Source of the DNA: Bilabrum cf. latius
Taxonomy: Eukaryota
Length of the DNA: 64,000 nt
Assembly: GCA_965178125.1 (NCBI GenBank)
Contig: OZ237769.1
Coordinates: 558,001-622,000 of the forward strand
Direction of reading: 5' to 3'
Of the stretch, positions 1,553 to 61,011 are shown piece by piece (the first letter of the stretch is position 1; each line of letters opens with the position of its first letter). Below the pieces are notes generated by a model that saw nothing but the letters and a program-made list of their open reading frames with translations, did not search any database and had not been told where the DNA came from. Made by a program: the position numbers and the translations under genes.

Positions 1553-3025
1553 TCACACGATCCCGTCGGGATCAACGTCGGGCAGACCAGGCGAGCTGTT
1601 GCCGTCCATGTCGGCTCCATCCGGATCCACTCCTGCACCACTGGACGCGTCCCCGTCGACCTCAGCCCCTTCGACCTCGACCTCACCCCCAGAAGCCTCA
1701 TCCCCAGAAGCCTCACCCTCACCAGCCCCCTGTGCCCCACCATCCGCACCAGGCCCAGCTGCACCCTCACCAGCCCCCTGTGCCCCACCATCCGCACCAG
1801 GCCCAGGCCCAGGCGCAGGCACCGGTCTCCACAGTCTCTTCGACTCCTCCTCGAGCATGCCCAACAGCTCGTGCTCCTTACACTCCGCAAGATCATCGAT
1901 GAACGCTCGATCCAGGACGGGCGCCGATGGCTCGTTGTCCTTGTCGTGCAGCTCGGCCAGGTAGGGGTGCGCCAGGGCCTCTTCTGCGGTGATGCGGCGG
2001 CTGGGATCAAACTGGAATATCTTGTCCAGCAGGTCCAGAGCCAGGGGATTGGCACCTGGGATGAGAGAACCCAGATTGGCTCGCTCGTGGCCGTGGGTGG
2101 ACTAGACCCGCTGGAGAAACCGCCTGGCGGCGTGGTTTGACACAAAGTCAAGCTCGCCGTCCGCCCCACTCGGACACCCCACGGCAGCCAAAATCTTCTC
2201 CAGCTGATCCACTGTGGAATGTCCGGCGAACATGGGCCGCTTCCCCAGTATCTCTGCCAGGATGCACCCGACGCTCCACACGTCCATGGCCCCGGACAGA
2301 GGCCCGCAGCTGATCATCGCTTCGGGCGAGTCGTAGTGGCGAGCGACCACGATTCTGCACCTGTCGGAGTCATCCTCAAGCTCGGAATGCTTCTCAATCA
2401 GATCAACGGGCTTGCCCCCGTCTCCGGTGGGGCGCCCCAGCGCCACTGCCTTGCCGAACTGACACATGGCCAAGTCGCAGTCGGCGTTGCAGTGGACGTT
2501 CCCGGGCTTCAGGTCGCGGTGCACCACACCGGCGCTGTGAATGTACTTGAGACCACGCATCAGTTGGTACGTGAAATACTTCGCGTGGTCGTCGGTGAGC
2601 TCCTGGCGGCTCCTGAGGATGGCGGCCATATCGACGTCCATCCGTGGCGACGCGAAGCACACCTCTCCGCGCTGGGAGGGCCCACCGAGGGAGCCACGGG
2701 GCACGGGTGGTGGTATTATTACATCCGATATGCCCACTATATTTTCATGGCCGCCTACGTGTCGGAGAATCGTGAGTTCTCGCAGACAGACCCGGGCCTT
2801 CCCAAGCCAAACCATTGATGAGTCCTTGGTAGACAGCTTGCTCGTTATCCTCACACGATGCCGAAGTGATGTATCTATGCAGGTGTAAGTGTCGCCGTAT
2901 GACGCAACCTTCACATCCTAGTACCTCTTGTCGACCATCGCAACGCTTCGTTTAGACTTGTGCAGGTAAAATTCTCGCTTGTAGTCGCAACCAGCGCATT
3001 CTGGAGCATGCCCCACCGCAGCCAT
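1553..3025 (-). CDS. MAP kinase family protein, probable pseudokinase (490 aa, 2 in-frame TAG)
   Basis: ATG at 3023-3025. VDKRY*DVK (TAG 2918-2920), HRDLKPGN, DVWSVGCILAE, QRV*STH (TAG 2102-2104), LDLLDKIFQFDPSRRITAEEALAHPYLAELHD. TGA at 1553-1555. One frame throughout. Confidence 0.88.
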
Positions 3026-3219
3026 TGGATAGATAAGCACTTAAGCAATTAGATTGGGTCGCGTACTTCGGCCATCGGATAGATGTGTGCATGTATCCGG
3101 ATGCTCGATCTTACCGCATAACGAACGTTCATGAAGGAGGAAATGTCTGTCCACGGTCGGTCCGTGCGGCGAGTGCAACTCGAACTGCAGCATATTTCCA
3201 GACAGCCACCGGAAGAATA

Positions 3220-4842: not shown

Positions 4843-5736
4843 TCAGAACTGCAGCTTCTTGAAGAAGAAAAGGGCGCCCTGGAACGCCTTCTGGCTGGCC
4901 TTGTCGGGCTTGTTCAGCTTGTCCACATTCAGCCAGCGGTCCTGCATGGCCTTCTTGACCTCGCCCTTGGCGGCGTCGAGCTTCTCCTTCTTCTTGAGGG
5001 TGGCAGTGTCCACGAGGCTGGCCAGGGACTCGGCGATGTCCAGGTTGTAGCGGGTGGGCATCACGTGGTTCAAGTTGACGTACTTGACGAAAGGCTTGAC
5101 GGCGAGGCGCTGAGACACCTTGGACTGCTCGTCCTGGTGCTCCTTGTCCCACTTCTGCATCTTGCGCGTCACCTTGCGGGGAGCGCGCTCCAAACCAGCC
5201 ACTGCGGCAGACAATTCAGGAATTAATGGCAATATCGGTACGGGGTACAAGGCAGCTGCTGCAGGGTGCTGGAACCGCAAGCGGCATCTGCTCGATTTGG
5301 GCTCACCGATGGCGTGGGGGAAAGGCCTGTCAGCCTGGCCGGACTCGGCGGCAGACAGTACCACGGCCTTCTTGCCAGCGTACCGGCCCCTAAGGATAAC
5401 AACAACGCGTCCCTTCTTGATCCTGCGACGAACAGAGCAATGCAGGCGAGCAAACCAAGACAGATTCTATTCCATCCTCTCGAGCACCTCCAAGCCTAGT
5501 CACAGGTCTTTTGGCTAGCTCAAGCTGAAGTTAATATAGTATTCACTGTACGGCAAGGCAGCATTCTCTGTAGGTGGCCTGTCAGCGATAGTTGAGGGCG
5601 ATGCATGCTTCCAACTGAAAGCCCAACGATGAAATAAGGCCCTGTGGGGATATCACTGTATCGAATTCGAAAATACCCTCAACAGATCCAGAACATCTCA
5701 ACAATACAAACTGTTGTAAACTTACACGCGCCCCAT
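4843..5736 (-). CDS. RPL27: 60S ribosomal protein L27 (eL27); exons 5726-5736, 5307-5422, 4843-5201
   Basis: Spliced product MGRVIKKGRVVVILRGRYAGKKAVV...PFPHAIVAGLERAPRKVT...KPFVKYVNLNHVMPTRY...FFFKKLQF. GT-AG introns 5423-5725 and 5202-5306. TGA stop, no TAG used. Confidence 0.95.
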
Positions 5737-5875
5737 ATTAATAGGATAGGTACCACCGGTTGATATACGGCTCGATCGGCTGAGTGGTGGCTGCCATTGA
5801 TCCGATCCTTGAGGATTAATCGGTTGCAACCTCTCGTCCGTTGGATGGGGCATCTTTCGCCGTCGGTATTGTGTC

Positions 5876-7034
5876 ATGGAAGATGCAGAAACCATTACTG
5901 GGTACGGTAGAAGACGAGGCAGACCATGTAAGTTCATATAACTCCCGACAAACTCCTATGAAGTTGTTAATTCGCTGTTTCCGTCCATGGAATGCTGTCC
6001 TACTTCATCCAGTGCCACTGTTTCTTACAGAGGGATCGCCTGATGATGATGGTAGTGGTGCAGCTGCAGGAGGATAGCCCTCAAGTGGTTGGGGATCAAG
6101 CGCACCCAGTGGCGCGTCCTCGTAGGAGCCAGGTGATCCGGTCGCAGGGTGGGGATCTTCTGCGGACGCCAGCAGAACCCGACAAATAGACGATACAACC
6201 GTTACTGAGGGTGAGATGTTTGCCAATCTCGTTCTCGTAACGCTGCGTGGTCTACGTTCGCATTCATTGCGCATGTGTCCGGCTCTCGATGCCCAACTCT
6301 TCCCCAATCGGACGTACACTCGTTTGCTCGCCCGCGCAGTGAACATGGAAGGCGTCCGGGATCTGGACGCAGAAGGGAACCCAGACATCACAGAATAGGT
6401 AGCGAATGCCCCCCGTTATGCGGGCCGGCAGGTGCAGACTCTTCGGGAGCTGGACGAGCAGGCGCGTGCGGCCGCGACGGGAGCGACCGAGGCGGGCCCC
6501 TCGGAGAGGGCAGACCTGACGTTGCTGACGAGTGTGCTCAGCGCGCCCAACGCGGTGGCGGAAAACAACGAGCCCTGGGAGTTCACGATGCTCCTCCAGT
6601 CAGTCGCCAGGGAACTGGAAGAGGCGGGGGAGTTGCAACCGGCGCAGGGGGCGGCCCTGAGCGGCGGCCCGGCGGCGAGCAGCTCTGGGCCGGGCGTGGC
6701 TGGAGGGTCCGCGGCTTCGTCTGCCTCTGCGGCGGGGGCCGGGAGCAGGGGCGTGGGTCGAAGGGCGGGTGCGAGCGCGCATGAGGGAGGTGGCGCCGGG
6801 GCGGGAGCGGGTGCTAGTGCTGGTGCTGCCAGCGGTGCGGTGGGAGCAGGGGCCCCGTCATCTAGCACTCCCTCCTGGGCGCGAGAGCTGCAAGGGGGTG
6901 GACAAAGTGGTGCTAGTGGTGGTCAAAGTGGCGGTGGGGATGGAGGGGATGTGTCTAGGAAGCTTGATCTCGGTCTGGACGGGGGGGAGGGCCAGGGGGC
7001 CACTGCTGGGCGAAGGGCGGGCAGGAGAGGGTGA
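5876..7034 (+). CDS. IFT43: Intraflagellar transport protein 43; exons 5876-5927, 6031-6210, 6340-7034; 4 in-frame TAG
   Basis: DLDAEGNPDITE*VANAP...VQTLRELD...DLTLLTSVL...ENNEPWEFTMLLQSV matches the IFT43 core. TAG at 6075, 6123 and 6396, plus one T|AG split by intron 1. TGA stop. Confidence 0.85.
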
Positions 7035-12715: not shown

Positions 12716-12848
12716 CACTCGATCACTTCGGGCCACCGATCCACTCGATCACTTCGGGCCACCGATCCACTCGATCACTTCGGGCCACCGATCCACTCGA
12801 TCACTTCGGGCCACCGATCCACTCGATCACTTCGGGCCACCGATCCAC
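12716..12848. repeat. 26-bp tandem repeat x5 (CACTCGATCACTTCGGGCCACCGATC)
   Basis: Five identical head-to-tail units with no spacers, lying between two convergent genes. Confidence 0.95.
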
Positions 12849-12879
12849 CCACCGTCCCACATGCCGATAGTGCCTATCA

Positions 12880-14232
12880 TCAGCAGCACAGGAGTCTCCA
12901 GAACCCCTCGCAGGCCGCGCAGCAGCAGCACAGCAAGGAAGACCCGCACAGATTCCTCCTCCTCCTCACCCCCCTAGCTTCATCGTCATCACCGTCCCCG
13001 TCCCCGTCATGGTCCGCCCCTTCCTCGTCCCCCTCCCCCTCCCCCCCCCCCTCGCCGCGGACACCCTGCCAGCCGGACTCCCTGCCCCAGCCCCTGCTCC
13101 TGCTGGCGCTCCTCCGGCCCATCGCCCCCATGCTGCCGCCCATGGACACAGACCCAGCCAGGCTCTCCAAGTCCCCGTCCTCGCCATCGTCGCCCCCGCG
13201 CCTCCGCCCTCTCGAGCGAGACGACCGCCGGCCCCCCATCCGCAGGATCAAAGACGCGGCCTCGGACACGCCCGAGTCGCCGAGCCCGCCGCCAGCACTC
13301 GTCACGCCGCCTCCAGCACGCAAGGAGGCCCTACCCGCCCCGGAGGACGCCAACCCACCCAGCCCTCCCATTGTTCCCTGGCCAACGAGGCCCCGCCCGG
13401 CGAGGGACAGCAGCTGCTGCAACCTCCCAGGGTCCCTCACCGGGTTCAGGTTCACCGGCATGCCGCTGCCCAGCACGTCGGTTCCGCTCGCCGCGCACGC
13501 GGCCTGGGCCTGCCGCAGGGTGCGGAACCGGACGCACGCGAAGTTTGGCCCCGGCCTGATCTCCACGGCCTGCCCGAACCTGTCGCAGGCGGTCTGCAGC
13601 TGCCGCAGGTCCTCTGTTCCCTAGAGCGGGGCTCCCCACACCTCCACCCAGGTGGGCGGGAAATCCGTCGAGTTTTTCTGCTGCTTGCTGAAGGCCCCCG
13701 CAGGGCCGGAGCCCTCCATCCTGCGGGCGGCAGTGCTGGCTGCGGTCCCGCCGAGGGAGCGGCGCGCGGTGCCGGCCCCCGAGGGCAAACCCCCGGTCAT
13801 GAACGGGTCTTGCGCAGGGGTGCCCAGACCGTCGGTGCCCCGGCGGCTGGAGGCAGGTAGGCTCAGCTGCCCGGACGCGGCCAAAAAGTCGCCTTCCCCA
13901 CCGTTGGAGTGTCCGTGGAAGGAAGACCCGCCCTTGCCGAAGTCCTCTCCGATAGGTCCGGCTCCACCAATGCTATGTTGCGTCTCGTCCATCGTGTAAG
14001 GGATGTCTTCATCAAGCGCTTTCATCTGCAAGCAGTGGGATCGCCGGGGGTGCAGTGCTGATAGGTGGCTGCTAGTCGAGACGGTCGCTTACCATGCTGT
14101 CTGGGGACACTAACAGTATACCAGAGCGCGTATTGGCGCAGTTAAACCTGCTAGTCTCACCTGCATCTTGCCTCTGCGCCGCGACCGGCTTCTTGACCGA
14201 TTGCGGCGGGGTGTCCTTTGTACTCCTGCCAT
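12880..14232 (-). CDS. Nup35/Nup53-type RRM (MPPN) nucleoporin-like protein; 1 in-frame TAG; first exon uncertain (14161-14232, then 12880-14025)
   Basis: TWVEVWGAPL*GTEDLRQLQTACDRFGQAVEIRPGPNFACVRFRTLRQAQAACAASG...VNLNP resembles the Nup53 RRM (WVTVFGF...NWMHIRY...QARKAL). TAG at 13621-13623. Amphipathic, Cys-rich C-terminus. Ends TGA TGA. Confidence 0.65.
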
Positions 14233-14545
14233 CGCTCAGCTACTCTGAGTAAGCAGGGCTGCACAAGGCTGCTTGCGGAGTATTGCGCGAGTTTGATTTC
14301 AATTTAGCTGATACTGGCAGGATTTAGTCACTGCAGGTGCTCAATTCGATTGATCGCTGGATTTCGTGCATCTGCTTTATCGGCCGTTTGAAAGGTGTAC
14401 CTAAAAAAAGATGATGTCCAGCAGTGTGACGAGCAAGCGCTCGCCTCGCCAGCGCTCGCACGACTCGACCCCACTGGAGACACGTAAACAGCACTGCTCT
14501 GTCGTGAACGTAGAGAATAGCTAAGAATTTGCTGTCGACACTACC

Positions 14546-17500: not shown

Positions 17501-19304
17501 TGCTGCTGCTGCTGGGCGAGAGGGTGCAGAGGGAGCGCTAGAGGGCGGATCGCAGGAAGGGGGGAGGAGGGTCGTTGTACCCGCGGGGAGGTTTGCGGCC
17601 GCGAGACGAGCGGTGGCGGCGCTGAAGCAGCACCCAACTGCAGGGGCAACGGCAGGGACAGGGACAGTGGCAGGGGGGGCATCGGCACGAGCCAGCCAAG
17701 ACTCGGCTGCGACCACAACCGGTGGTGCTGCCGGGTAGGGTGCATCGCACTGCATCCCCCCCTCAGTCCCCTCGGCATCCATCGCGGACCTGGACCTGCC
17801 CCCAAGGGTGCTGGACAGGCTGGAGAAGGAGAGCAAATCTGGCGGGGCGAGGCAGAGCGGGGAATCGTCGGGCGATCTCGGGATGCTGGACGAGGCGGAA
17901 GGGGCCGCCGCGGGTGAGGATGTGCTGGACACGGGCATGGGCAGCGGCATGGACGCGCAGGAGGTCTTCAGGACCATGCGGGAGCCAGAGGACGGCGCCT
18001 TTGGGCTGGTGAGGGACGCGAGGTGCCTCTCGGGGCACATCGTGGTGTGCGGCAACACGGCCGAGAACCTGAGCCTGTTTGTCCACCCCCTGAGGAGGGA
18101 GAGCGCGGCGCCCGTCCTAGTCATGTTCGATGCGGAGGACGAGGAGCCCCCGGGGATTAAGCTGCCCGCCTCGATGCTGCGGAACGTCTTCTTCTTGAGG
18201 GGTTCCCACCTGAGCGTGAAGGACCTCCGGAGAGCGGGCATGCAGACGGCCGCGGTGGCCGTCATCCTGGCCAACCACGCAGGGAACAAGTCCTCCTCGG
18301 GCGGAGAGGAGGAGGACGCCGTGTCCGGGGCGGTGGCAGACCTGGAGGCGGTGTTCACCACGTGCATCATGGAAGAAAGGTTCAAGAGCTGCCGGCTGGT
18401 GGTGGAGATCCTCGAGCCTGAGAGCATGAAGTTCATGAGTGCATCGCCTGGCAGCGGGCTGCTACCCACGGCCCTGTGGCCCCAGTTTGCGTGCGGGCGC
18501 GTGTTCACCGCAGCGGCGATGGATACCCTGCTGTGCCAGGCCTTCTACAACCCCGCCCTCCTGCCGGTGATGCAGCGACTCATCACGGGGAGGTCTGCCT
18601 CGGAGCTGCAGAGGGAACAAGACGCCAGGGAACAAGAGATCCGGGCGGCCAACGCGGAGCCGGAGCCGTACCAGCGGCAGGTGATGGCAATGCGCTTGCG
18701 GCTGCTGCATCGCGGAAGGGAGAGGAGGGCGGCGCTGGCCAACCACCATGCGATGCAAGCTGCGGGTGCATTGCACGGTGGTGCAGCCAGGTCTGGCACG
18801 CCCCCCTCGGCCCCTCCTTCGGGCGCCCCTGCCAGCGAGGTGCTCAAGTGGTTCGGGGTGGACTACGACCACGAGCTGGTGACCGCGGCCGAGTTCGACG
18901 CTGCCAACGACCCCATCGCTCCACCTGGCTTCAAGGCCGAGCACTTTGACGAGAACTGCCAGGTGGTGCAGATGCAGGTGCCTGCCCCTTTCATCAACCG
19001 GTACTACAGGGACCTGTTCATGGAGCTTCTCCTGACCCAGGGCATCCTGCCCATCGGCATGTACCGCACGCAGCACGTCTTCCAGGCGCGACTGCCCTAC
19101 GTGGTGGCCAACCCGCCCCCTCTCACGGTGCTGCACGCAGACGACCGCCTCTTCATCCTCTGCTCCAAGTCGCTGGTGCAGAGGGCGGCGCACGTGAGCA
19201 AGACCAAGGCGCCCGAGCCCAACGGGGCGCGGCTCGGGAGGCTCAACTCGAACCTGGCAGATGCGGTGCTGCGGTCCATGGGGGGACGACGCAAGGGGCT
19301 GTGA
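14546..19304 (+). CDS. BK/Slo-family potassium channel (6TM plus two RCK domains); exons 14546-15186, 15321-15379, 15562-19304; 3 in-frame TAG
   Basis: S4 FLRVLRVFRIVRILR. Spliced pore MDFF*AAYLVIITVTTVGYGD. RCK1 HVIITG...GFSTLVSNL, RCK2 GHIVVCG...FACGRVF...CQAFYNP. TAG at 14645, 15370 and 17736. TGA stop. Confidence 0.92.
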
Positions 19305-41488: not shown

Positions 41489-41661
41489 CCTTTGGTGTGA
41501 TTCGGCATGTGGTCCGGCTCGACACCACCTTCGTCACATCTGCCAGTGGAGCGTGCATGCCAGTGGATTGCAACACTCGGTCGTTCGAGCCGAATGAGAT
41601 TTGTGGATGCAGACTAGCCCTAAGTGCGAAACGCTGTAGAACGGCGATCGGATCTTGTCGC

Positions 41662-45934: not shown

Positions 45935-48655
45935 TCAGCGGGACCGGCTGCCTGCCTTGGCCTTGCCCCTCTTGCCCTTGCCACTGGCTTTACCGCCCTT
46001 GCCCTTCTTGCCAGGGGCGGCCTCCTCTGCGGCGCCCCTCCCCTCCTCCCCCTCGTCCTCCCCCTCGTCCTTCTCCTGCTCTTGCTCTTGCATGCCCGCC
46101 CCTCCCTCCGTGGCCTCCTCCCCCTGCACCTCGGTGGTGACCCGCCGGATCTCCCAGTAGAAGAGCCCCAGCAACGAGGCGAAGAACCAAGCCGTGCACA
46201 CCCACCACAGCAGGAACGACAGCGCGCTCCGCAGAACCAGAGGGCTCATCAGCCCGCCCTCATCCTTGCCCAGCCCCTGGCCCTGGCCCTCCACCGCCCC
46301 CTCTCCCCCCACCGCTGCTGCGCTCTCTTCATCCTCCTCTAGCCCCAGCATGTAGGCAGGCACGCCCCTGGCCCAGTCCATGGCGTCCATCAGGAACGAC
46401 TGCTTGCCCCCCGCGGGCACCTCCCCGAATCCCCTCAGGGGACCCCTCCACCCCATCCCATCCTGACCCCACAGCGGGGACGCACCACCCCCCGAACCAT
46501 CTGCGCCCTCGCTCACAGAGCACAGCCTGGTATCCCCCAGCACACCCAGCCTGTCCACCCACCTACAGGCCCCCAGCACCAGGCCATTGGCCCAGCCCCC
46601 GGGCAGCAGAGGCACCCGCCCGTGCCGCGCCAGCATCAGCCCCAGCGCCAGCACCAGCGCCCCCGCCGCCACGTGCTGCAGGGCCAGCACCGCCAGGGTC
46701 AGCCGCTGCCTCACGGAGGCCAGGTTGCACGCGTTGTACACCCGGTCGAAGGAGGGGGGCCTGGGGGCCGCGGCGGTCACCCACAGAGAGTCTCGGATCT
46801 CACGGCGGGCCAGGATGAGGTGGTGCATCGCATGCACGCGCACAGTCACCAGGTGCGCGATGCCCCACGCGATGGCCGCCCACACGCGCAGGGCCAGCCA
46901 CTGCGACTCTGTGAGGAAGACCCTGGACCTGTCCCACGTCCATGGGGACAGCCAGCCGACGGCTGCGTCCGCGACGCTGGCGTACTCGGGTGCGGGGGTG
47001 CGCTGCAATGCGGTGCAGTCCCTGGCCAGCGACTGCGCATCGCACTTGACCAGGTCGGGCGCCAGCACCAGGTCGCCAATCACGGGCTTGATCCACGCGA
47101 GGGCCAGGAAGAGGGGCACGAAGAAGAGCACCATGAGGCACACGCGGCGCCACTGGGGGAGGGCCTCCTTGTCAGGGCCACGGGTGGCTGCAAAATACGT
47201 GCGGGCGCTCCACACGGCGGGCCGGAACAGCAGCGCCGCCACCATGGCGGCGACGAAGGCGGCAAACAGCCTGACGCCAGCAGCTGCAGCCATGTCCGAC
47301 AAGGACCCATCGCCCGGCGCATCCTCCCTGCCCCCCTCCTCCCCCACAGCCGCCCCCGGGACGATATCCAGGCCCCCTTCTGCCCCCGCCCAGTCCCCTG
47401 CCCCGCCATCCCCCTCCTGCTCCTCCTCGTCCCAGTCCCCGTCCAGGTCCAGGTCCCCGAACAGCCCGCCCCCCTCGGAGCCCTCCCCCTGCCCACCCCC
47501 CTGGGCAAGCACCTCGGTCTGGTTGACCCCCGGCAGTGGACCTTCCCCCCCACTGGCATCTCCATCGGCTGCACCTATTTCACCGACGACTTCCCCCTCC
47601 TCGCCCGCACCATCCCCCGAGCCCCACTCCGATGCAGAGGATCCTGCCCCTGCCCCTGCCCCTGCCCCTGCCCCTGCCCCTGCCCCTGCCCCACTGGTGC
47701 CCAGCGCCACTGCCGTCCGCAGTACCATCAGCTCGGCCCTGCCCTTGGCCTCCACCACCGCCTGCACCAGCCTGAAGTCAGCCACCCGGTCCGGCAGAGA
47801 CACGGCCCCCAGCGCCAGCAACAGCCCCAGCAGCCCGTACCCCAGTGCCAGCAGCGCCTCTGTGTTGAAGACTCCCGCGATCGAGTAGGGCAGCCCCTGG
47901 CTGACGAGACTGGCGAAGGCCACCACGGCCAGCACCACAGCGGAGAAGTCTCCCCTCTCTCCGTCACGCACCCACGCCCACAGCTCAGCAAAGGCAGTCA
48001 CGGCCGCGGCCCCCGCCAGGAGGTTCACGAAGAGCTGCAGGACCTGGAAGAGGTACATGCGGTCCCACTGGGTCGTGCGCTGGATGTTGTGAGACAGCGT
48101 GGCAACGGATGCCTCCGTGCTTCCGGGGGCGGCAAACACGCCCGCCTGAGTAGTCGCCGTCCAGTAGTCTGTGAGGCGGTCGAGTACCCGGCCGACGTGC
48201 TGCCGCTCTTTCGGGCCTGCGATGGCAGTCGGGGCCGCGGGGGGCTTCTTCGGCTGCTTCTTGCCTTTCTTTCCTTTCTTTCCACTGCTGCTCGACGTCG
48301 GCTTGTCCGGGACGGCTTCCTCGCCAAACTGCGATGAGCAACTGGGAATGGGCACGCCAACGGGCCGGAGCACATGCAGCTGTAATTGCGGCGCTGTGGC
48401 CTCGCGAGAGCTTCAAATCGCCCATAGTTTAAGAAATAGGTGGGAGATTATTGTATGACCTTTTTAACGTGCACCACTCACCAACACCTTGCGCTGCAGC
48501 AGCACAATTTCCTCCATATTATCTTTCGGTGCAGCTGCCCAGTACTTCAAGCCAGCCAGCATGTGCATCGCAAACGATCGAAATCGGAACACTCGCGACG
48601 CAATCATAAGAACTACAACAAACACTAAGAATTCAGGCGAGATGGCAAGCGCCAT
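45935..48655 (-). CDS. TMEM161-family multi-pass membrane protein; intron 48380-48481
   Basis: SFAMHMLAGLKYW, FVPLFLALAWIKP, LALQHVA and LRSALSFLLWWVCTAWFFASLLGLFY match TMEM161 motifs. TGA stop, no internal TAG. Confidence 0.8.
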
Positions 48656-48771: not shown

Positions 48772-51700
48772 ATGGCCTCCTGGTTTTTTGGAAGACAGCC
48801 AGACAAGTTTAGTTTACAGAATTTACGGTAAGTGGGTGGTATATTGGTCCTTAGAAGTCGTTATCTCCAGTGATATGGGCACGGTTGCACACGTCGCAAA
48901 GGAAATGACTGGCCCATTCCGCCAGCTCCCGCCTTCGAAAAGCTTACCCGGCCTGGGCTTGCATAACCTTTGTAAATACATGCGCTCGTGCGTCTTGAGG
49001 GACGCAACGAGCCGCTTGGATCACTGGTCGGGCCATGACGATTCGCACCTACGATCCCTACCAAAGCCATTGGCACCGTAATTATTTATTTCCATGTCGC
49101 AGAAACTAGCATGATATCCTACTGAAGGCAGCGGTTGAGGCAGGGACTGCAACGGAGCAGCAAGTCGTTGAGGCATTGCGGGAGCTAGGCGAGCTGATGG
49201 TGTATGGCGACAAGCACAACGACCGCTTTTTTGAGTACTTTTGCGAGCGTACCATGATGAGAACGATGGAGAAGATCCTTCGCAACAAGGACTTTGGCGT
49301 GAACGTGCGCGTGCAGGTCATGCAGACCGTGATGATCCTGCTTCAGAACATCTCCAACGAGCGCTCGCTGCTGTACCTGCTGTCCAATCACCAGGTCACG
49401 AGCCTCATGCAGGCCGTGGAGGAGGACAGTGACGAGGAAATGGTCGCTTACTCCGTGTCTCTCCTCAAGCTCCTCTCCCTTAGGCTGGACGAAACCACTG
49501 TGCAGTTCTTCCTGGTCAGAGTGAGCATGGGCGCCATGCAGGGTGCATGCCCCACACACAGCCATGCACCAGGCAGGGCCACGCCGATCCATACGCCCTA
49601 TCGTTTGCTCTCCCATTGTATCACCCACCCCCCTTCTCCAACCCCGGTTTGGTCGCATGTACCCACCGCAGTCAGGCTCCGGTGTGCGATTCCCGCTCTT
49701 CTCCCGTGCCGCCGCCCTCCTCAAACATCCAGAGACCATGACCCGCACCTCTGCCCGCACCATTGTGCTCAACGTGCTCCGCCTCAGGGAACAAGACGTG
49801 GAGTCCTTCCTGGTGGAGGGTCCCTCGGGGGACCTCGTGCTGCACCTCACCAACGCGGCGAGGGCGGCTGCCATCGCGGTGCAGGACACGCTGGACGGGC
49901 GCAGGCTGCAGCAAGCCACGCTCAGGAACCCAGGGCCGGCGGGAGGTGCGGGGACAGGGGCAGGGGCCATGAGCCCCCGGGCAGGTGCGGGCATTCGCCC
50001 CGGGGTTGGTGCCCCTCTGCCCCTCTCCTCCCAGCCCTCCATGCGGCACCTGCCCGTCGGTGTGATGAGTGGCCCAGGGATGCCTCTGCCCCCGCCCTCC
50101 CCCCAGCGGTTGGAGTTCTCCTCTAGCGGACAGGCTCTGGTCCCCGGTAGGTCCTTCAGCTCCTCATCCTCGGGGGGGTCCGCTCCTGGAGCAGATCTGG
50201 TGCAGGGACCAGGACAAGGGCAAGGGCAAAGGGCAGGAGCAGGGGCAGGGGCAGGGATGGGGATGGGGATCCCCATGGTGCATGCCACTCGGGAGGCAGT
50301 GCAGCTCCCCGGCCCGCTGCCCTGGCAGGCCACTTGCGGGCTGCCCTCCCGCGCGGAGGGCGCCTTCGGGGAGGCCCTGGACCATCTGTTCTTCGTGTCG
50401 GACTGCTTGGAGAGCGCGCCCGCGAGACTGGCTGACGACCTGAGGACCTGTCTATGGGTGTCGGCTGCGGAGCCGCTCTTTATCGCGCCCGTGGCGGAGG
50501 CGGCAGGCTACCTGGAAATGGCCAGGGCGGCATGGATCCGGAGTGCGACGCGCGGGAGGAGGAGGGGGAGCGGAAGGCGCATCGCGGGCGCGCTTAGCGG
50601 GGGGTTGCAGCCCACTGCGGCACCCGGCAGTCCGGTGACCCCGCGGCCGTCCGCCCCCGGGGCACCTGCAGCAGATGAGGACAGCGGCGACGGTGGCGGC
50701 AGCAGCAGCAGGGCAGCCTCTGGCGATGGGAACCAGCCCCCCACCCCCATCCGCGCCCCGACCGTCGCGGGTTCCCCCAAAGCCGCGGCGCCTTCTCGCA
50801 CTAGGTCCCAGTCCTCTGTGGGCACGCACTCGCTGGGTGCATCGCACGGTGGCATGCGGCCAGGCGCGGCCCTGGTGCTCCTGGGCTCGGCACTGAGGGT
50901 GCAGACGGACGCCAGGCTGCTGCAGGCGCTGGCGGACCCTCTGCTCCCGCAGGAGGCACCCCCCGCAGATGTCCTGTGGGGGGGTGGGCCTGGAGCAGGG
51001 GCCGGGGCATAGGAGGGCAGCTCCAATGGAGGGTCAGTGCACTCGTCATCCTCGCCAATGGAAGCGTCTCAGCAGGTTGTTCCCCCGTCCCTGCCGCCCC
51101 CGTCTAATGGGAAGGCGCAAGGAACAGACGGTCAGCCGTCCTCTTCCTCGTCTGCAGCACCATCCTCGTCCTCCTCCTCCCCGCTGGCCCCCTTCGGGAG
51201 TCGCAGGGCCGCGGGAAGGTCTCTGCAGCTGGCGCTTGAAGGCGCGGGTGGCCCCCACCTGCGGGGCGCTGCGCTCGCCGCTCTGCACCAGGCCTGGGCG
51301 GCGAGGGACGTGCCTGCGGGTGTGAAGCACTGGCTGGGCATGAGGACGCGGCCATGGGCCAAAGGGGCGGGGCTGGGGGCGCCCCCCTCGGAGGATGCAT
51401 AGGCCTTGGCACAGGAGGATGCATAGGCCCTGGCACAGGAGGATGCATAGGCCCTGGCACAGGAGGATGCATAGGCCCTGGCACAGGAGGATGCATAGGC
51501 CCTGGCACAGGAGGCGAGAGAGGGGCACGCCAGGCAGTAGGGCAAGTTGCAGGCGGCTCTGGTGCGGGTGACATGTGCCAACCCGCCGCCCACCGAGGCC
51601 GAGATGGCGATGGCCCTCTCGTTACTGAGGAGGGTGGCGCCTCTGAGGTGGGCCAGCGGGGCGGCAGAGGCGGTTGCAACCGGTGGGGGTGCTGCGGGTG

Positions 51701-54267
51701 CGGCTGCCGGGAGTGGCACCGCGAGTGGTGGCAGCAGCAGCAATGGCGCGACTACCAATGCGAGAGCGAGTGCAAGCGGAGGGGAGGGCCGGCCTCGTGC
51801 CCGGAGCCGCGCTGGCTCGATGGCGGCTCCGTTCAACCCGGGAGAGGAGGCCCTCGGGCCCCCGCTGCTGCCTCCCGATGCAATGGACCTGATCGCCGAG
51901 GGGCTCCGGAGGGCGGGGCGGGAGCTGGAGGAGGCGCTGCGGCCCGGTGGGGCGGTTCTGCGTGCGCTGGGAGGGGAGGGGGCCGCGCTGGCAGCCATCG
52001 AGGCAGAGGTGCTGCGCGCCACGGGGGGGCCCTCGGGGCAGGGGGCGGGAGGGGCCCGAGTGGCGGTGCGGGAGGCGCAGGCCTGGGGCCTGGATGGGGG
52101 GCTGGAGCCCGGCCCCACTAGGGGGGCAGAGGACCCCCACCTGCTGGCCCGGTGTGTGGGGCTGGATGATGCAAGGTACTGGGGGATGGAGGGTGTGGGT
52201 GTGGGGCTGGATGATGATGAATAGGGAGATAAAGGGAAGGGTGAGGTGGAGGAAAGTACCGGGGGTGCAGTATCTGCGGGGCTGGGGGTCGGCGTAGGGA
52301 GTGCGGGCGAGAACGGCAAGAGGGGCGAGGAATCGAATTAGGAACTGGGCGAGGAAGACGAGGACGAGGAGGAGGAGGGTGGGCAGCAAGGGGGGGGAGC
52401 AGAGCAAGCGGGCGAGTCGGGCCCCACAGATGAGGCACCCTCACCGGATGCTGGTGACGGGCTGGAGAGCCCCAGGGCCCTGAGGCTGCCCCCACCTCTG
52501 CCCCGCAAGGGAGCCTCCTCTGTACCTGATTCGACATCCCATGAGATGGCAGGCACCATCTCCTCCTCCGCCGCTGCATCAACCGCAAGCCCAAGCGCAA
52601 GCACGCCCCGCCTGCTCTGGGCCGCTGCCCCCTGCCTGCTGCACGCGGCCCAGCGCGCGGCGTGGATGGCAGGCATGCCGCAGTGGGAGTGGACCGGGGA
52701 TGCGCTGCAGTGCGATGCACCTGTCCTGTACGCGCCTGACCCGCCCCTCCGCGGCCAGCAGCGGGAAGCCCTGTGGACCGCAGCCCAGCAGGCGGTCACT
52801 CGGGTGCTGGAGGTGCCTCTCGAGTGGAGGGGGCCGCTGGGACCCGCCGAGGCGCTGGCCAGGGCGGTGAGGAGGCTGCTGGCGCTGCGGCGCCTATGGT
52901 TCCGCTGCCACGGGGAACAAGTCGCGGATCGTGCGGTGCGCTCCCTGCGTCCCCCCCTTGGCTCGATCAAGCCGGGGATGGAGTTCACGATAGGCCGGTT
53001 CTCGCCCATCGGTGCCACGCACATGCTGCTGCCTCCCACGAGACAGGGGGCTGCCCTGGCGGGTGTCGACCCCTTGGCGGTGCGACCCCCCATGTCCCCC
53101 GGGTAGGGGTCACAGAGACAGGTGGGGGCGCGCCGGGGGTCGGGGCAGGGGCCGCTTCCCAACGGACACTCCCCGCTCGCGCAGGGGCAGGGGCAGGCAC
53201 CGACCTAGGCGCATGCACAGGGGCAGGGGCCAGGCCCCAGCGCGCTGAGGAGGTCCGTATCAATGCAGCCAGGGGCAGTGGTCCCGGGGGCCAAGGGGCA
53301 GGCGCCCCCGTAGGCCCCTGGACGAGGGGGGGTGCCTACCCCAGGTACCCCCGGGGGTTTGTTGGGATCGAGTGCCCTTGCCACCGACACCGACAGCGAC
53401 AGGTGGTGGGTGGACGCTGCCTCGGTCCTGAGGAAGAGGAGGGTGCCCTCGGAGACTGCCTTCTAGCGGAGGAGGCTTGCTGTGGTGCTCGGCAAGAACT
53501 TCCTCGTGCTGGCCAAGCCGCTGCCCGTGTAGCAGACCCAGACCCAGACCTAGACTCAGGGACAGGGGCAGGGGAGCACACCTTCCTCCCCTCGGGGCAA
53601 TGCCGCCCGGCGGCGCAAGGGAAGAGCCGTCCTGGTGGCCCCGCTCTCGGCGGTCGAGGCGCGGGTGGACCCGGATGGGGCCGCGGTGCTGCACGTGCGT
53701 GTGACGAGTACCAGGCCCTTGCCCCACACCCTGGACCTGGGACCCCCGGGTGTCCCCGAGGTGGGGGAAAGGGCACTCATCACAGCGCTGGAGCAGGAGA
53801 TGGCCGCCGAGGACCGGGCCAGGGAACACATGCGGGCCCTGGCTGGGGGAGGCGATTGGCCGCCGCCCGTGCCACCCCCGGCGCTGGAGGCGGTGCGTGC
53901 GGTGGCGCGGCATGCGGTCCGCAGGCAGGGCGGGGTGCGGCACTGCTCGTTTGTCCTGGTGTTGGACAGCGCCGAGACCGCGGCCAGAGTGGCGCAGGTG
54001 CTAAGCGAGAGGCGGGCGGGGCTCGAGGCGAGACGGTTGGCGGCGCTTAGGGCGCTCCTGTCCTTCGACCCGCAGCGGAGCAGCCCAGGGAGAGACGATG
54101 CGATCGAACTGCAGTCCAATGGCGGTGGCGGTAATTCTTCTCGTGCAGGTGCTTCGGAGACAAAGGTGTCAGCGGCGGCAGGCGATCCAGATCCAGGCCG
54201 CCAAGCGATCGAAGTTGCGGCCAAGATGAAAAGCGAAAGCGTCGGGAATGGCAGCAAGAGCCAGTAA
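48772..54267 (+). CDS. CLEC16A/TT9/GOP-1 family FPL-domain protein (about 1690 aa); introns 48828-49102 and 49521-49671; 16 in-frame TAG
   Basis: DKFSLQNLR, VVEALRELGELMVYGDKH...FFEYFCE, QVMQTVMILLQNI...LYLLSN, RFPLFSRA...HPETMTRTSARTIVLNV. TAG at 49107, 51010, 51400, 51424, 51448, 51472, 51496, 51538, 52222, 52339, 53104, 53206, 53311, 53464, 53530 and 53551. TAA at 54265-54267. Confidence 0.88.
51391..51510 (+). repeat. Coding 24-bp tandem repeat x5 (GAG GAT GCA TAG GCC CTG GCA CAG), EDAQALAQ if TAG=Gln
   Basis: Five units, each with an in-frame TAG. The first unit has TTG instead of CTG (synonymous). Confidence 0.95.
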
Positions 54268-54396
54268 TTGAGTAGTTTACTGTCGCAGGGATGGGCATCA
54301 TTGATTAAATGTGAAATGGCATTTTGACACGCATAAATCCAACGTATACAGAGCAAAATACGTGCATCCCGCAGCCAGGACCGATCAGTTCCACAG

Positions 54397-57300
54397 TCAC
54401 CCTTCGAGCATCTTGCTCACCCGCCCAGCCTCGGTCGCAGGCAGCAGCGCCGCCACGCGCTTCTCCGCCGCGGCAGTGCCCATCGCCTTGCCCACTTCCT
54501 GCAGCGCGCCCGCCAGCGGGGCCCGCAGGCTGGCGGGCACCCTCGCGGACGAGGCCGCCCGAGCGAGCGCCGGGAGCACCTGCCGGTCGACCACCTGCGC
54601 CGCGTGCTTTGGGTCCAGCCGGGGGATGGCCCTGGCCAGCGATGCAAGTGCCGCTGCTTTCACCCTCGCGCTACTGTGCGCCACCCCTCCCACGAGCGGG
54701 GCCAGCAGCGCCCTGGCAGAGGCCCGGTCCTCCAGCAGACGGAGCGCCCTTCCCGAGGCCTGTGCCACCGCTGGCTGGGTGGAGGCGATTCCCTTGGCCG
54801 CCGCTGCCACCACGATGGGGAGGGCCCCATCCAGCGGCTTCCCCTTGAGTGCGTTGCTCTCGATCACGTCTGCCAGCGACAGGGCCGCAGCAGCCGCCAC
54901 CTTGCTCTGCCCGTCTCCAACGTGCTGGGACACCACGTCCAGCACTCGCATCGAGTGGGCCCTCGCGGCGGCTGGCTCCCTCCTGGCGAACTGGGCCAGC
55001 GACTGCACGGCCCCCTGACGAGTGCGCCAGTCCGAGTCCCCCGCCTTGGTCAGGATCGTCTCCAGCTCCTCGGGCATAGGGCCGGATGAATTGCCCCCAC
55101 CGGACCCGCCGCGCCCGCGTCCGCTCCTGCTCTTGCTCCGGCTCATGCCGCGGCGGCCGCGGGGTCCCGTGCCTGCACCACCGTGCGATGCAGCCGCGCC
55201 CTCGGTAGCCCGCTTGCGCATGGCCAGCGCCCTCGACGCCCGCCGGTCCTTGGCCATGGCTGCACCACCGTGCGATGCAGCTGCGGGTCCACCGAGCGGG
55301 GACGCGTCGGCCCCGCTGCCTTCAGCCCCCGCCGTGGGGGTGCTCCTGTCCCCAGCAGGGGTGGGCGGGGGCAGCGACACCTCCGGAGTACCGACCTCGT
55401 CGCTCCCTTCTCCTCCCGCCCCTAGCATGTGACGAGTGCTCCCTGGCCCGAACTGAAAAGCGCCGCCTACTCCCCCGCCGCCTTGCTCGATGCTACCCGG
55501 GGCTCGGCTCCGACTGCTGCTGCGGGCGCTCCTCCGGCGGCTCCGGCTGCTGGCCAACCCGGTGTGACGAGTGAAAGTGCCCCTGCGCGACCCCACGATA
55601 GAGGCGGGGGTATCCCCTCCAGCACCCCCCTCCCCCGCGCCCCCCTCCAGGGGTCCATGCCGCAGGAAGTCGTTCAGCCGCAGAGCCGCCCTCTCCCCCA
55701 GCAGCGCCCTGAGCTCGCCCTCGCTGGCATGCCCCCCCGCCCGCAGCACTGCGAGCGTCCTCTTGCCCGCGTGCCGCACCCCCTCATTCCCGGCCTGCGT
55801 GAACTTGGCGGCCTGTCTGGTGACTGCCTCGACCTGGGCCCCCGAGAGGGCAGCGAGGTGCACCTGGGCCACCTTCTCCACCCATGGAGCGGAGGACAGC
55901 CGGACCAGAGGTTCCGCACTGCGCGCGGCGCCCAGCACCGCCCCAAGCGCGGCCTTGGCAGAGGCCCCCTGCACCACGGCGGACAGCGCCCGCCCTGCCT
56001 CGGCCTGCAAGAAGGCGTTGGAGGCGTCCCCCGCCCTCTTCAGCAGGGGGGGCATGCAGGCGGGCAGCGCGGGCTCAGCCGCCGCCCCCGCCGCGCCCAG
56101 GAGGTCTGCCACCGCCAGCAGCGCGCTCTTTGCGAGGGCCGACCGAGGGGAGCTGACGAGAGGGGCCACCAGTCGGAGGGCCCTGTTGGCGTGTTCCCTG
56201 GCCTGGGGTGGGTGGTGCGCTGCCATCCTCCTGAGCGCAAGCAGAGCCTGCACCTGCTTGCTCCAGGAGGCGGTCTTGCCCTTGGCCTGCGCCTCCACTA
56301 GGGCGTCTGCGGCGTGCTGCCAGGCGGACTGCGGGTTCTTGAGCGGCTGCAGCTGGTCCTTGGGCACATACAGCTGCTGGGTATCGGGGGCACCGGAGGG
56401 AACACCTCCCGATGCCACGCTGGACGCCCCCCCGAATGACCGGGTGGACCCCGCGGGTGACACCCCCCCACCGCCGTTGGGGACACGACCCGCGCCCGAT
56501 CCCCGGCCCCTGCTCCTGCTCCTGCTGCCTGCCCCGGGGGACCCCCTCGGCGCATGCCTGTGGGGGGAGGAAGCACCAGCACCAGCACCAGAGCTAGCGC
56601 TAGCACCCGCACCCGACGAGCGCGAAGGGGAAAGAGAAGGGGAAGGGGACCTTCCCGTTGACACGGGAGGCGGCTTGGATACGCGCCGCTGCAGCCCCCT
56701 GTGCCCTCGCACTGTTCCTTGGGACCCAAAAGGCTCCTAATTCGCCCCCGGTGGAAGCGCGTAGGTGGCTGACGGGTCCGCCATGGGGTGCAGGGGCCTG
56801 TCTGCCGGGTCGCTGGAGGCCTGTCCGAGCGAGTGGGGGGCCAGAGAGGCGGGGCCCATGGAGGGCGAGGCGGGGGGCACGTCCACGTCCATGCCCGCGC
56901 GAGAGCTGGCCCGGGAGCGGGTCCCCACGGAAGGAGAGGGCTGTAGGGGGGCCGTGCGTCTCGCGTCAAGAGGGCCAGCGATGCTGAAGCTGCTGCTGCC
57001 ACCACCGGCCGCTCCCTCTAAATGGCCGCTGGGAGCGTCCACGGAGTCCCGCAGCCAGCTGGGCACCGGCTCCTGCCCCCTCCCAGTACCAGTGGCTCCG
57101 AATCCCCCACCCCCGCGAGACCCCGGTGGCGGCCCCCTGCCCCCATACCCTCCTTGCCCACCTGCCTGCCCCTGCTCCCCGTAGTCGTCATAGTCGTCTT
57201 CCCCGTCATGCTCCCGCACACCGAGCGCAAGTCTCGTTGCCGATCGCTCCCGCGCTGCTCGTCGGCCAGGAGTCGCCCACGCGCTTGTTCCCTGGGCCCT

Positions 57301-60300
57301 CGTAGCCGCCAGGTCCATTCCATCACCATCGCCCCGCTGCTCCTGTCGCTGCCCCCCGCGCGCTGGTGTGGCCAACCCCAGGTCCACAGCAGATCCGCCG
57401 ATACGACCCAGCCCCTCCCTCTACCCGCCGTGCACTCCTCCTCCTCCTCCTCCTCCTCTCCCTCGCCCATCTAGCTGTTCCCCAGCACCCAGCTGCCCTG
57501 CATACGACCCCTGCCGCATGACGGGCGGCCTGGGCCCGCGCCGCAACGGCCCTGCAGACGCTGCAGAGCGGCGCCACGTGCCGCCCCCAGCCCCAGCCCC
57601 AGCGCGGCCCGCCGCAGCCGCCGCCGACACGCCGTCCCCGTGTCCATAGTCCCCCTCCCCGTCCCATCCATCCTCCCCCAGCAGCAGCCCCCGATGAGGT
57701 GCTTCCTCCCCCACCCCTGTCCGCCCCGCCGCCAGTCGCTCGTCCACCCGCTCGGCCAGCGACTGCCTCCGCCTCGCCCTGCCCCCCTCCATGATGCGCT
57801 CGTCCACTTCCTCCGAGATGGACTTGCGGCGGACACGGCCTCGGCTGTTCCCTGGGCCCTGCCCGCCCCTGCTCCTGCCCCCCACGTGTTTCATTTCCTC
57901 CTCGTCCATCCACGACGGCAGCTCCGGCTAGATGCGACCCACGGACGGGCTCCCACTCCTGCGGCCAACCGAGGCGCCCTATGTCTGTGCGCGGGGGCGG
58001 CCCCCTCCCCTTCCACGGGCCCCTCCAGCGCCCACCTCGCCCCCAGCACCCCCCATCCCCCGCAGCAGGTCCAGCTTGTGCTGCTCCAGCAGATCCCCGC
58101 CCCCTGACCCGCCCCGAGATCCCCGTCCCAGCGGCCCGGCCCCCGGCCCGCCGCCCCGCAGCGCCCTCCCTTCGAACCTTGGAGACACGGCCCCCGCCCC
58201 GCCGCCCCGCAGCGCCCTCCCTTCGAACCTTGGAGACACGGCCCCCGCCCCGCCGGCCATGCCCCCCCGCGCGTCATCTTCCTCGAACAGACCGCTGGCG
58301 TCGGCGTCCCGCAGCCAGGAGGGCGCAGCGGACCCCTCCATGGGGTCAACATCCCCAGCCCCGTATCCCCTAGGGGTGGCCAGGGGAGACGCACTCTGTC
58401 CCCTGCCCCTGGAGGGGGTCCCGCCCACGGGCCCAGGTGCCCGTCGCATCGCCTGCGCCGTGAGGTCGCTCGCCCCCGCGCTGCCCCTGCCCCCCTCGCT
58501 GTCAGACCACTGCACGCTGTGGCGACCCCCTGACGAATGCACGCCCCCCCTGTCCCTGTCCCTGTCCCTGTTCTCCGGGCCTCCATCTGCCTCCCTGCCC
58601 GCACCCAAGTTGCCCCCTCTCCCTCTCCCTCTCCCGCCCCCCCGCAGGGGACTCCCCGCCACCACCTGCACCCCGCCGTCCGCCGCACTCGCAGACTGCG
58701 CGCGGAGGGACCGGCGACCGTACCGCGGGCCCCTGCCTCTGCCCACACCCCCGGGGGCCCCTCCCGCAGCAGAGGGAACAGCGTCCAGATGCCTAGATGA
58801 GGGAACAAGTCCTGGTTTCGGCCGGGCCAGCGGGCCTCCCGCCCCCGGCCCTGCAGCAGCCGCAGAGAAGGCCCTTGTTCCCTGGGCCCGCTCCCCCCTC
58901 CTCCCGGCTCTATCGTCCGCTTCCTGCTCCCCTACAGGACGACTAGCGGCAGGACCCCGCCGGGGATCCAATGGACCCGGAGCCGATCCCTCGTGCAGCC
59001 AGGAAGGCACCGAGTCCAGAGAGGAGTCCAGCCCGTCCCTGCGCCCCCGTGCATCCAGCCCCCTCTCCCTCTCCCTCTCCCTCTCGCCCGCCGTAAGGCT
59101 GCTGGACCGGCTACCCGCCGCAGAGACAGGCACGCCCACGGACCCTCCACCCTCCCCCTCTCCTTTGTCCGTGGAAGGCGACCCGCGGCCGATTCCCAGT
59201 CCCAGTCCGATGCCTGCGGTCCCCTTCCACCCCCTCCCTTGTTCCCTGGCCCCGCCCCCCTCCACCTCGTGGCTCCTCGCCGCTCGCCTGAGCGACCCGG
59301 GCCCGCCCCTCCCGCCCCTCCCGGCCTGGTGCACCCCCGCACCCGATCCTCCCGGGCCGTCACCCACACCGACACCCGGCCCGAGCCTGACGTCTTGCGC
59401 GCTCTAGCCCCGAGGCCGTCTTGTTCCCTGGCCCTGGCCCTAGCCCTCGTGCGTGGTCAGGGCACTAGAGAGGGCTCCCCTGTGCCCGCGGCCCAACCCC
59501 GGGCCCCCACCTGACATCACCATCCCCATCTCCATCCCCATCCCGACACCCAGCCCGCCGCTGTGCTCGCTGGCCGCGGAGAGAAGGGTCTGTGCCGTGC
59601 CCAGGGCGCGAGGGGGCGCCTGTGCACCGCCATTCAATGCACTTCCAGACCCCAAGGCAGCCGCTCCGGCCCCCACAAGCGCTGACCCCCTCCTGGGCCC
59701 CTGCTCCTATGCTCCTGTGTCCGGCAACTCCATGCCCACGGTGGCGGGGGACCGACGGGAGGAAGCCATCGACAAACCCCCGCGGGATGCACCCCCGCCG
59801 TGGGGACGGGCAGACCCCGCAGAGGGGGGCACTGACCTGCCCCCTGGCCCGGTGCCATACGGCGCCAAGGACGAGGACCCGTAGCTCAGCTGAGAGCCGG
59901 CCCCGTGGGAAGACACGCTCCCAGCTGCAGCTGCATCCAGCCCGCCTGTGCCCAGCTCTCGCCTGGAGCTGGCCCTCCCCCTGGCCCCCGTTGTTCCCCG
60001 GGTGCTTCCCCCCGCCCCCGCATCGGAGGGCAGCACCACGAACCCCTCGCTCCCAACATAGGCCACCGGTGCTTCTCCACGGACTGCCTGCTGCAGCCTA
60101 TGGCCCAGTCCCCTGCGAGCCTTCTCATGGGCCACCTGCGCGTGCACCTTGCCCTGGTTCCCGTGAGCGCCCAGCAGCCGCTGCTGCTGCCCTTGCTCCG
60201 CCCCCCTCGGCAGCATAGCCCCCGCCGCCCACTCCTCCACGCGACCCGCCGCCATCTCGTCCGCCACCGGGGGTTCGCCCCCTGCTGCTCTTGCTTCACT

Positions 60301-61011
60301 CGTCACACTCCTAGGCCCCAGCACCACAGCCGCCGCCGCGCACACCTCCCTGGCCCCCGCCTGCACCCGGCCCACCGGGTCCGAGAGAGCGGGTGCCGCT
60401 GCCTCCACCACCCGCCGGAGCACCGCCTCCCTGCCCCTGCCGCTGACCGTGCCCTCCCCCGCGGCCAGGGCAGCGGCCGCCAACACCCGCACGGCCTGGT
60501 CCCGCACCCCGCTGCGACGGTGTGTGACGAGCGGGGCCACGGACGGCAGCACGCTCTCCGGGCCGGCTGCCCTGGCCACGGCGGCGAGAGCGCGCAGGTT
60601 AGCATGGCGAACCACCAGCTTGTTGTCCGAGATGCGACCCATGAGGGCGGGCATGAGGGCGTCACGGGCGCTGCTCGCGGAGCGGCTGTCGCCCCCGAGC
60701 GCGCGTTGCCCTCCCGATTCCGCAAGAGCATGGGCTGCATCCAACCCAGCCATCACGCTGCGAAATGATGGGTCCTGTACCGCGCTTGCTACTAGTTTTG
60801 CAATCTCTTCTGCGTGCTGACGAACCTATTCTGTGCCTTGGGCCCCACGAATGCGCTTTGCCAGCTGCTCTGCGGCTTGGGCCGTACCCATGCCGGCTCC
60901 TCGCGATGATCTTCTGCCACCAGCGTCCTTACTTCCTGAGAGCGACTGCAAAACATCATTTCCAACGAAGTCTGACAGCGAATTTTTGGCCTGGCTGCCA
61001 GTTGATGCCAT
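54397..61011 (-). CDS. TOG/HEAT-array microtubule regulator (TOGARAM/crescerin or CLASP-like; about 2200 aa); 8 in-frame TAG
   Basis: AVQDPSFRSV, LMGRISDNKLVVRHAN, WSKQVQALLALRR...VSSPRSALAKSA, SNAFLQAEA, DSDWRTRQGAV...GDGQSKV. TAG at 60826, 59707, 59440, 59404, 57979, 57928, 57421 and 56737. TGA stop. Confidence 0.85.

Follow-up and report, generated by a model that had tools for sequence, protein, structure and literature searches.

Which codons end translation in the nuclear genome sampled by contig OZ237769.1? We analyzed a stretch of 64 kilobases (kb) of this eukaryotic nuclear DNA (positions 558,001 to 622,000 of the forward strand; hereafter the window, in whose own numbering all positions are given), where long reading frames are repeatedly broken by the triplet TAG. 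An initial annotation, made from the letters alone, had proposed that UAG is a sense codon, most likely for glutamine, and that UGA and UAA remain stops. Our analysis favors this same reading, with UAG most likely decoded as Gln and termination occurring mostly at UGA and also at UAA, and we give it a probability of roughly 0.7. A code in which UAG alone stands for Gln has the pattern of NCBI translation table 15. The GC content varies between 56 and 73% along the window and is ~65% for the DNA as a whole; genes sit on both strands, and long low-complexity stretches are common among the encoded proteins.

Same-frame open reading frames (ORFs) meet at TAG, as had been noted from the letters; examples are 15384–17738/17739–19304 and 1553–2101/2102–2917. 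Under the standard code, the longest ORF comprises 845 amino acids (aa). Reading TAG as sense gave ORFs of 2233, 1960, 1580, 1467, 1306, 1284 and 1047 aa, and reading TAA as sense left ORF lengths nearly unchanged. Because GC-rich DNA has long chance ORFs, and because reading through TGA lengthened ORFs too (longest, 1175 aa), we used a test that is independent of stops. All six frames were scanned, and codons were kept if, in their 60-codon neighborhood, GC at third positions exceeded GC at second positions by at least 0.35 (GC3–GC2 ≥ 0.35). Among the 4,922 codons so retained, TAG occurred 16 times, TAA and TGA not once. At a threshold of 0.25, the counts were 71 TAG, 5 TAA and 17 TGA in 12,627 codons. 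For comparison, the 2264 stop triplets overall comprise 1291 TGA, 676 TAG and 297 TAA, such that TGA is about twice as common as TAG. The proposal that TAG interrupts genes, and that TGA and TAA do not, is thus upheld by the test. Where ORFs of at least 150 codons flank a stop on both sides, that stop is TAG in 19 of 31 cases, versus 30% TAG among all stops.

Further counts were made in two sets of ORFs, both delimited by TGA and TAA. The long-ORF set (17 ORFs, 15,448 codons) contains 84 in-frame TAGs, and 16 of the 17 ORFs have at least one. Adding three from the sulfatase gene's exons, one from the first exon of BK and the one at 49107 brings the total to ~89, a close match to the figure of about 95 in 18 genes given originally. 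The Pfam-supported set (11 ORFs, 11,298 codons) contains 53 in-frame TAGs; its lack of internal TGA and TAA follows by construction, because these triplets delimit the ORFs. In the same DNA, the remaining two frames contain 85 TAG, 34 TAA and 272 TGA. Over the 40 codons on either side of the 84 TAGs, GC at the three codon positions was 0.69/0.56/0.68 before and 0.69/0.56/0.70 after. Past the 17 terminal TGA or TAA codons it was 0.53/0.54/0.54, with 26 more TGA/TAA triplets within the next 40 codons.

With TAG as sense, we annotated genes for a MAP-kinase-like protein, IFT43, a Slo/BK K+ channel, START-domain, EF-hand and RabGAP-TBC proteins, TMEM161AB, a CLEC16A-like (FPL) protein, a TOG/CLASP-like protein, a multi-exon arylsulfatase, RPL27, VPS26C and an ATG27-like protein. 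Domain matches cross TAG in Pkinase (aa 313), IFT43 (aa 193), EF-hand (aa 58 and 67) and TOG (aa 91). The MAP-kinase-like gene (1553–3040, minus strand) encodes 495 aa with TAG read and ends in TGA; its Pkinase match (Pfam, E=2.5e-35, aa 48–361) spans the TAG at aa 313 (2102–2104), and a second TAG at aa 41 (2918–2920) lies in 'KRYqDVK', where lower-case q marks the TAG position here and below. The IFT43 gene (5820–7034, plus strand) has TAGs at 6075, 6123 and 6396–6398. The last of these, at aa 193, falls within the Pfam IFT43 match (E=1.7e-19, aa 175–268), inside the conserved motif D-I-T-x-[Q]-V-A-x-A-P. In the EF-hand (calcineurin-B-like) gene (34152–35567, minus strand; Pfam EF-hand_1, E=1.4e-16, best stretch aa 54–77), TAGs at 35394–35396 and 35367–35369 occupy the first EF-hand (aa 58 and 67), another lies at 35061–35063, and a further one, at 35547–35549, is 5' of the Met. 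The TOG/CLASP-like ORF (54397–61098, minus strand; 2233 aa, nine TAGs, ending in TGA) has one TAG at aa 91 in the N-terminal TOG domain. Its CEP104-like_TOG (aa 75–247) and CLASP_N (aa 1609–1781) matches share one frame, with eight TAGs between.

The BK channel, too, has N- and C-terminal domains in one frame on either side of TAG. In this gene (14525–19304, plus strand), a first-exon ORF (14525–15190, one TAG) carries Ion_trans, and the second ORF (15384–19304, 1306 aa, ending in TGA) carries a TAG at 17736–17738 between RCK1 and the C-terminal domains, with Slo-like_RCK and BK_channel_a before it and Slowpoke_C after it. The RabGAP-TBC ORF (35651–41533, minus strand; 1960 aa, ending in TGA) has its Pfam match (E=4.2e-10, aa 1503–1647) downstream of all ten of its TAGs, again in the same frame. 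The START-domain ORF (27967–32370, minus strand; 1467 aa, nine TAGs, ending in TGA) rests on a Pfam START match (E=1.7e-4) slightly under the gathering score. Three exonic TAGs are found in the arylsulfatase-B-like gene (19782–22302, minus strand; Pfam Sulfatase), in the contexts 'GYATqMVGK', 'RRGqSFDG' and 'RLKqRIQ', and alignments to PDB entries (1fsu and others) cross them. The CLEC16A-like gene (48999–54267, plus strand) has FPL exons in two frames with an intron between, the Pfam FPL profile matching at 1–113 in one ORF and 117–148 in the next. One TAG lies at 49107, and 15 lie in the ORF 49525–54267, which ends with TAA at 54265–54267. A 24-nucleotide (nt) tandem repeat in this ORF (51390–51514, 5.2 copies, 99% alike) codes for 'EDAqALAQ', with a TAG in each copy. 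Because all five of these TAGs sit in repeat copies, they count as one event, multiplied by repeat expansion. Taken together, the frame, codon-phase and domain observations are genuine and exceed chance by a wide margin; we are all but certain that UAG is a sense codon.

Alternatively, the TAGs might go untranslated, being placed in introns or pseudogenes, produced by assembly or base-call errors, or edited to CAG in mRNA. The window does have introns (in the RPL27, sulfatase, CLEC16A and BK genes), and none of the sequencing runs described below is confirmed as RNA. Yet frames are broken by TAG alone, never by TGA or TAA; gap-free domain matches contain TAG, as in the IFT43 motif; and codon phase is the same on both sides. 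To this can be added the letters themselves. Contigs of four runs from two studies were compared over 22700–42699 (20 kb, 43 TAG places). X1–X4 may be source data of the window assembly, hence not independent; X5 and X6 come from the second study, and their being RNA is only a guess. The X1 contigs listed cover all 43 TAG places and the X5 contigs listed cover 17 of 43, and no alternative letter at a covered TAG is reported among the contigs listed. X5 contigs span six TAGs of the START-domain gene with the same letter in all, and X5 and X6 contigs cover the EF-hand TAG sites with zero differences. Over the 20 kb, a single substitution is listed, C>T at 25540, carried by one X5 contig. None of the joints listed has intron-like ends, and the genes of 22700–42699 seem intronless. 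Thus, independent sequencing data confirm the TAG letters, and, as to the base-call error that the initial annotation named as a refuting outcome, the contigs of two studies agree at all covered TAGs. Splicing-out or editing is formally compatible with the X5 and X6 contigs, because their RNA nature is only a guess. On balance, the view that the TAGs are not translated is largely refuted, and we give it hardly any weight.

X5 and X6 contigs both end at 35586, just 5' of the EF-hand ORF, and also at 34049 and 34055, just 5' of a 493-aa ORF; at all three places the DNA runs go on. These contig ends may be transcript 5' ends. The depth of X5 and X6 is uneven, which, with the shared end at 35586, is at most a weak hint of RNA origin.

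We turn now to the other two stop triplets. When ORFs were delimited by TGA only, they gained at most 64 codons relative to delimiting by TGA and TAA, and in the window no long ORFs fused at TAA. This bears on the possibility that UAG and UAA both encode Gln (UAR = Gln), with TAA being too rare in a GC-rich genome to show. TAA is indeed the rarest stop triplet (297 of 2264), and PMC11687900 describes UAR = Gln as much the most common of the variant codes. But if TAR encoded Gln and followed the CAA/CAG ratio of 0.18 found in these genes, ~9.6 internal TAAs would be expected in the Pfam-supported ORFs and 21 across all 17 long ORFs. None was seen in either set (P0 = 6.5e-5 for the former). The only in-frame TAAs of two genes sit at their extreme 3' ends. 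One is that of CLEC16A; the other, at 27846–27848, ends an ORF of no known family (24705–27848, plus strand; 1047 aa, four TAGs). These TAAs lie 20 and 3 codons short of the next TGA, and 130 and 119 nt from convergent gene ends, respectively, the neighbor of the 1047-aa ORF being the START gene. Such placement is as expected for real terminators. A code with UAR = Gln is therefore very improbable.

UGA as a sense codon fails on three counts: no TGA occurs among the 4,922 strongly coding codons, the codon-phase signal is lost past the terminal stops, and the match of the control gene for ribosomal protein L27e (RPL27; 4843–5499, minus strand) stops at TGA. In this gene the Pfam Ribosomal_L27e profile (6–85 of 85) ends on the last residue of the ORF, with TGA directly after. 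TGA closes 16 of the 19 ORFs in the ORF list. That UAA and UGA are stop codons, UGA mainly, is strongly supported, and the original statement that both remain stops can be retained.

Which amino acid does UAG specify? The most informative site is the TAG at aa 193 of IFT43. A HMMER search returned 120 homologues (best, 43% identity), which we re-aligned to the query with X at TAG; 115 give a residue in this column. Gln is the most frequent (60), followed by Lys (23), Arg (9), Thr (6), Val (6) and Ala (4), with Ile (2), Glu (2), Met (1), Leu (1) and Asp (1) making up the remainder and Ser absent. The column favors Gln, leaves Lys possible and speaks against Ser, Leu, Glu, Tyr and Trp. The case for Gln first made from this motif, whose family counterpart was given as QVAAPP, is thereby strengthened.

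The surroundings of the TAGs were examined in a composition test, in which tandem copies were collapsed and residues within five positions of the remaining 80 TAGs were counted. Gln is enriched 1.44-fold near TAG (P=0.014 versus random sites), similar to its enrichment near true Gln sites (1.39±0.20). Ser reaches 1.14 near TAG versus 1.51 near its own sites, and Lys 1.33 versus 2.59; Ser, Lys, Glu, Leu, Tyr and Trp all fall below their own self-enrichment (P≤0.01; Ser, P=0.01). Only Gln, His, Thr and Asn are compatible with this test. Moreover, TAG occupies Gln slots in simple repeats. In CLEC16A, two TAGs (53530–53532 and 53551–53553) lie in 'qQTQTQTqTQGQGQG', the second in the slot of 'QTQTQTqTQGQGQG', and in the TOG/CLASP-like ORF one (59440–59442) lies in 'EGqGQGQG'. 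The earlier remark that TAG stands where CAG stands in QT and GQ repeats is correct at both places. Taken together, these features suggest Gln as the best-supported meaning of UAG, a probable assignment but not a settled one.

Several points weigh against the reading as a whole. With respect to the amino acid, only one diagnostic column was obtained, that of IFT43. At four other aligned sites, in the EF-hand and sulfatase proteins, the closest homologues of solved structure carry K, S, V and S, and at the sulfatase site 'GYATq' the residues in five PDB alignments are W, A, A, H and I; these positions vary and do not favor Q. Both the Gln enrichment and the repeat slots could equally stem from CAG-to-TAG mutation in unconstrained Gln-rich stretches. 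A naive Bayes classifier based on flanking residues placed Gln 8 log units under the top, where I, T, S, A and K fell within 2 log units of each other. In held-out testing, this classifier recovered Gln in only 18 of 30 trials, and it was judged uninformative. With respect to termination, ORF ends exclude TAG by construction, so they cannot show UAG termination. The initial annotation had cited 22 gene ends with no TAG among them; the count is true, but delimiting by TGA and TAA guarantees it, and it is not evidence. In addition, in three of the 17 long ORFs a TAG precedes the final TGA by 4, 13 or 38 codons. Both points leave room for an ambiguous UAG, read as sense within genes but acting as a stop close to certain 3' ends, as in Condylostoma-type codes. 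Yet a uniform spread of the 84 TAGs predicts ~3.7 TAGs within 40 codons of ORF ends, and RPL27, the one gene with a conserved C-terminus, ends in TGA. We consider ambiguous UAG improbable.

Other searches added little on the amino acid. At the EF-hand TAG sites, three weak homologues show many residues; the positions are variable and not diagnostic, and the proposal that these sites indicate Gln is not borne out. A PDB search with IFT43 found no homologue, and word-index searches for protein homologues were near-empty (1, 0 and 2 matches), partly because low-complexity words crowded the candidate lists. A sense meaning other than Gln has some footing. Lys would be next best, as it appears in 23 of the 115 IFT43 homologues; calcineurin B has Lys and Ser at two EF-hand TAG sites, and arylsulfatase B has Ser at one of two TAG sites. 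Ser, the meaning in Scotinosphaera, would come after Lys, and a green alga with UAG = Ser and TAA/TGA as stops is documented in PMC8271138. Leu, the meaning in rhizarian exLh, is less likely. Against these stand the IFT43 column, with Ser in 0 and Leu in 1 of 115, and the composition test, where each of S, K, L, E, Y and W shows lower enrichment around TAG than around its own sites. For Ser, there is the further point that the organisms named among the 30 best IFT43 matches include no chlorophyte. We regard another amino acid as unlikely, and Gln is retained in what follows.

By analogy with known cases, the decoder of UAG would be a tRNA whose anticodon, CUA, can pair with UAG but not UAA. 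It would be expected to be accompanied by an eRF1 that recognizes UAG less well. CUA-anticodon tRNA together with changes in the eRF1 N-domain is argued to be the mechanism of UAG-only reassignment in the text of PMC5304391, which reports the eRF1 change T32G for Iotanema. Within the 64-kb window, no tRNA was found by ARAGORN, there was no Rfam match anywhere, and eRF1 is not among the genes.

TAGs are not evenly distributed among genes. None is found in the family-matching part of RPL27, in TMEM161AB (45935–48412, minus strand) or in VPS26C (62007–62897, minus strand). They cluster in long proteins with much low-complexity sequence, which fits the expectation for a rare, recently acquired codon. 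The window also carries several long ORFs outside any known family. One of these, of 620 aa, has nine TAGs in 620 codons, the highest TAG density of the window; together with the sulfatase gene it occupies a region (19300–24700) of markedly lower GC than the rest (0.565 in 20001–24000). In the 1047-aa ORF, a 39-nt tandem repeat (25607–26115, 13.1 copies, 99% identity) codes for 'ERERQLMADEPEE'; this near-perfect coding repeat suggests a very recent expansion. A perfect 26-nt tandem repeat (12716–12848, 5.1 copies), apparently intergenic, adjoins an RRM-like ORF (12880–14088, minus strand). The convergent gene ends mentioned above (27848–27967 and 54267–54397) are only 119 and 130 nt apart; therefore 3' untranslated regions must be very short or overlapping, which points to a compact genome.

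To what lineage might this DNA belong? Among the 30 best IFT43 matches, seven carry organism names: Cantina, Phaeothamnion, Pythium, Ectocarpus and Saprolegnia, which are stramenopiles, and Cyanophora and Rhodelphis. Chlorophytes, ciliates and metamonads are absent from these seven. With a protein so short, the matches offer a weak hint of lineage. The BK and VPS26C families were confirmed by database search with the standard-code ORFs and gave no lineage signal, and a metagenome scan with the BK N-terminus found no relative. A literature search turned up no nuclear stop-codon reassignment in stramenopiles, and, supplementary files aside, no reassigned nuclear UAG reported for a GC-rich non-ciliate flagellate or a stramenopile. 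We tentatively suggest, at somewhat less than even odds, that UAG changed to Gln independently here, in a flagellate with a GC-rich genome and introns that belongs to none of the ciliates, metamonads, rhizarians or green algae, is possibly a stramenopile, and uses UGA as its main stop.

Split UAG/UAA nuclear codes are few, and each further example is a test of why UAG and UAA usually share one meaning. The present one is distinct from known cases in its GC-rich genome and in having UGA as the main stop. Because the genome is GC-rich, TAG can arise readily from abundant CAG. A practical consequence is that annotation under the standard code would chop most long genes, given that 16 of 17 long ORFs have at least one TAG. 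If the origin is independent, a genome assembly would permit direct study of the tRNA(CUA) and eRF1 changes.

A GC-rich stretch of 64 kb in which genes lie on either strand, introns occur and long low-complexity proteins are encoded contrasts with typical ciliate genomes. The same features, and the lack of any ciliate sign here, set the window apart from phyllopharyngean ciliates and Protocruzia, in which UAG is likewise uncoupled from UAA and has Gln among its meanings (Gln or Leu), as given in PMC11687900. In that source, a change of UAG alone gives Gln for Iotanema, for Protocruzia and for two lineages of phyllopharyngeans; the meaning is Leu in one rhizarian and one phyllopharyngean, and Ser in Scotinosphaera, a green alga (also PMC8271138). 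Split codes as a class are listed there for a rhizarian, Iotanema, Scotinosphaera, Protocruzia, some phyllopharyngeans and one oligohymenophorean. The precedents named in the initial annotation, Iotanema and some ciliates, are thus incomplete, lacking the rhizarian (Leu), Scotinosphaera (Ser), and Protocruzia and the two phyllopharyngean lineages (Gln). The UAR = Gln codes (the table 6 pattern), recorded in PMC11687900 for many ciliates, Hexamita, Streblomastix, Ulvophyceae and Amoeboaphelidium, share the change of UAG from stop to Gln but differ in that UAA is not sense here.

Two further systems are also among the closest known. Scotinosphaera sp. is a eukaryote that lies outside the ciliates and reads only UAG as sense, keeping TAA and TGA as stops (PMC8271138). 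Its UAG means Ser, whereas the IFT43 column here has no Ser in 115 homologues and its named best matches include no chlorophyte. In Iotanema spirale (Fornicata), only UAG is reassigned, probably to Gln, and a CUA tRNA is the expected decoder (PMC5304391). UAA is, however, the primary stop there, as it is in rhizarian exLh according to the same text, whereas TGA ends 16 of 19 ORFs here, in DNA of ~65% GC. The named best IFT43 matches also differ, being mostly stramenopiles and not metamonads. A UAG-only reassignment is thus a kind of code already known, and this organism may be a new lineage having it.

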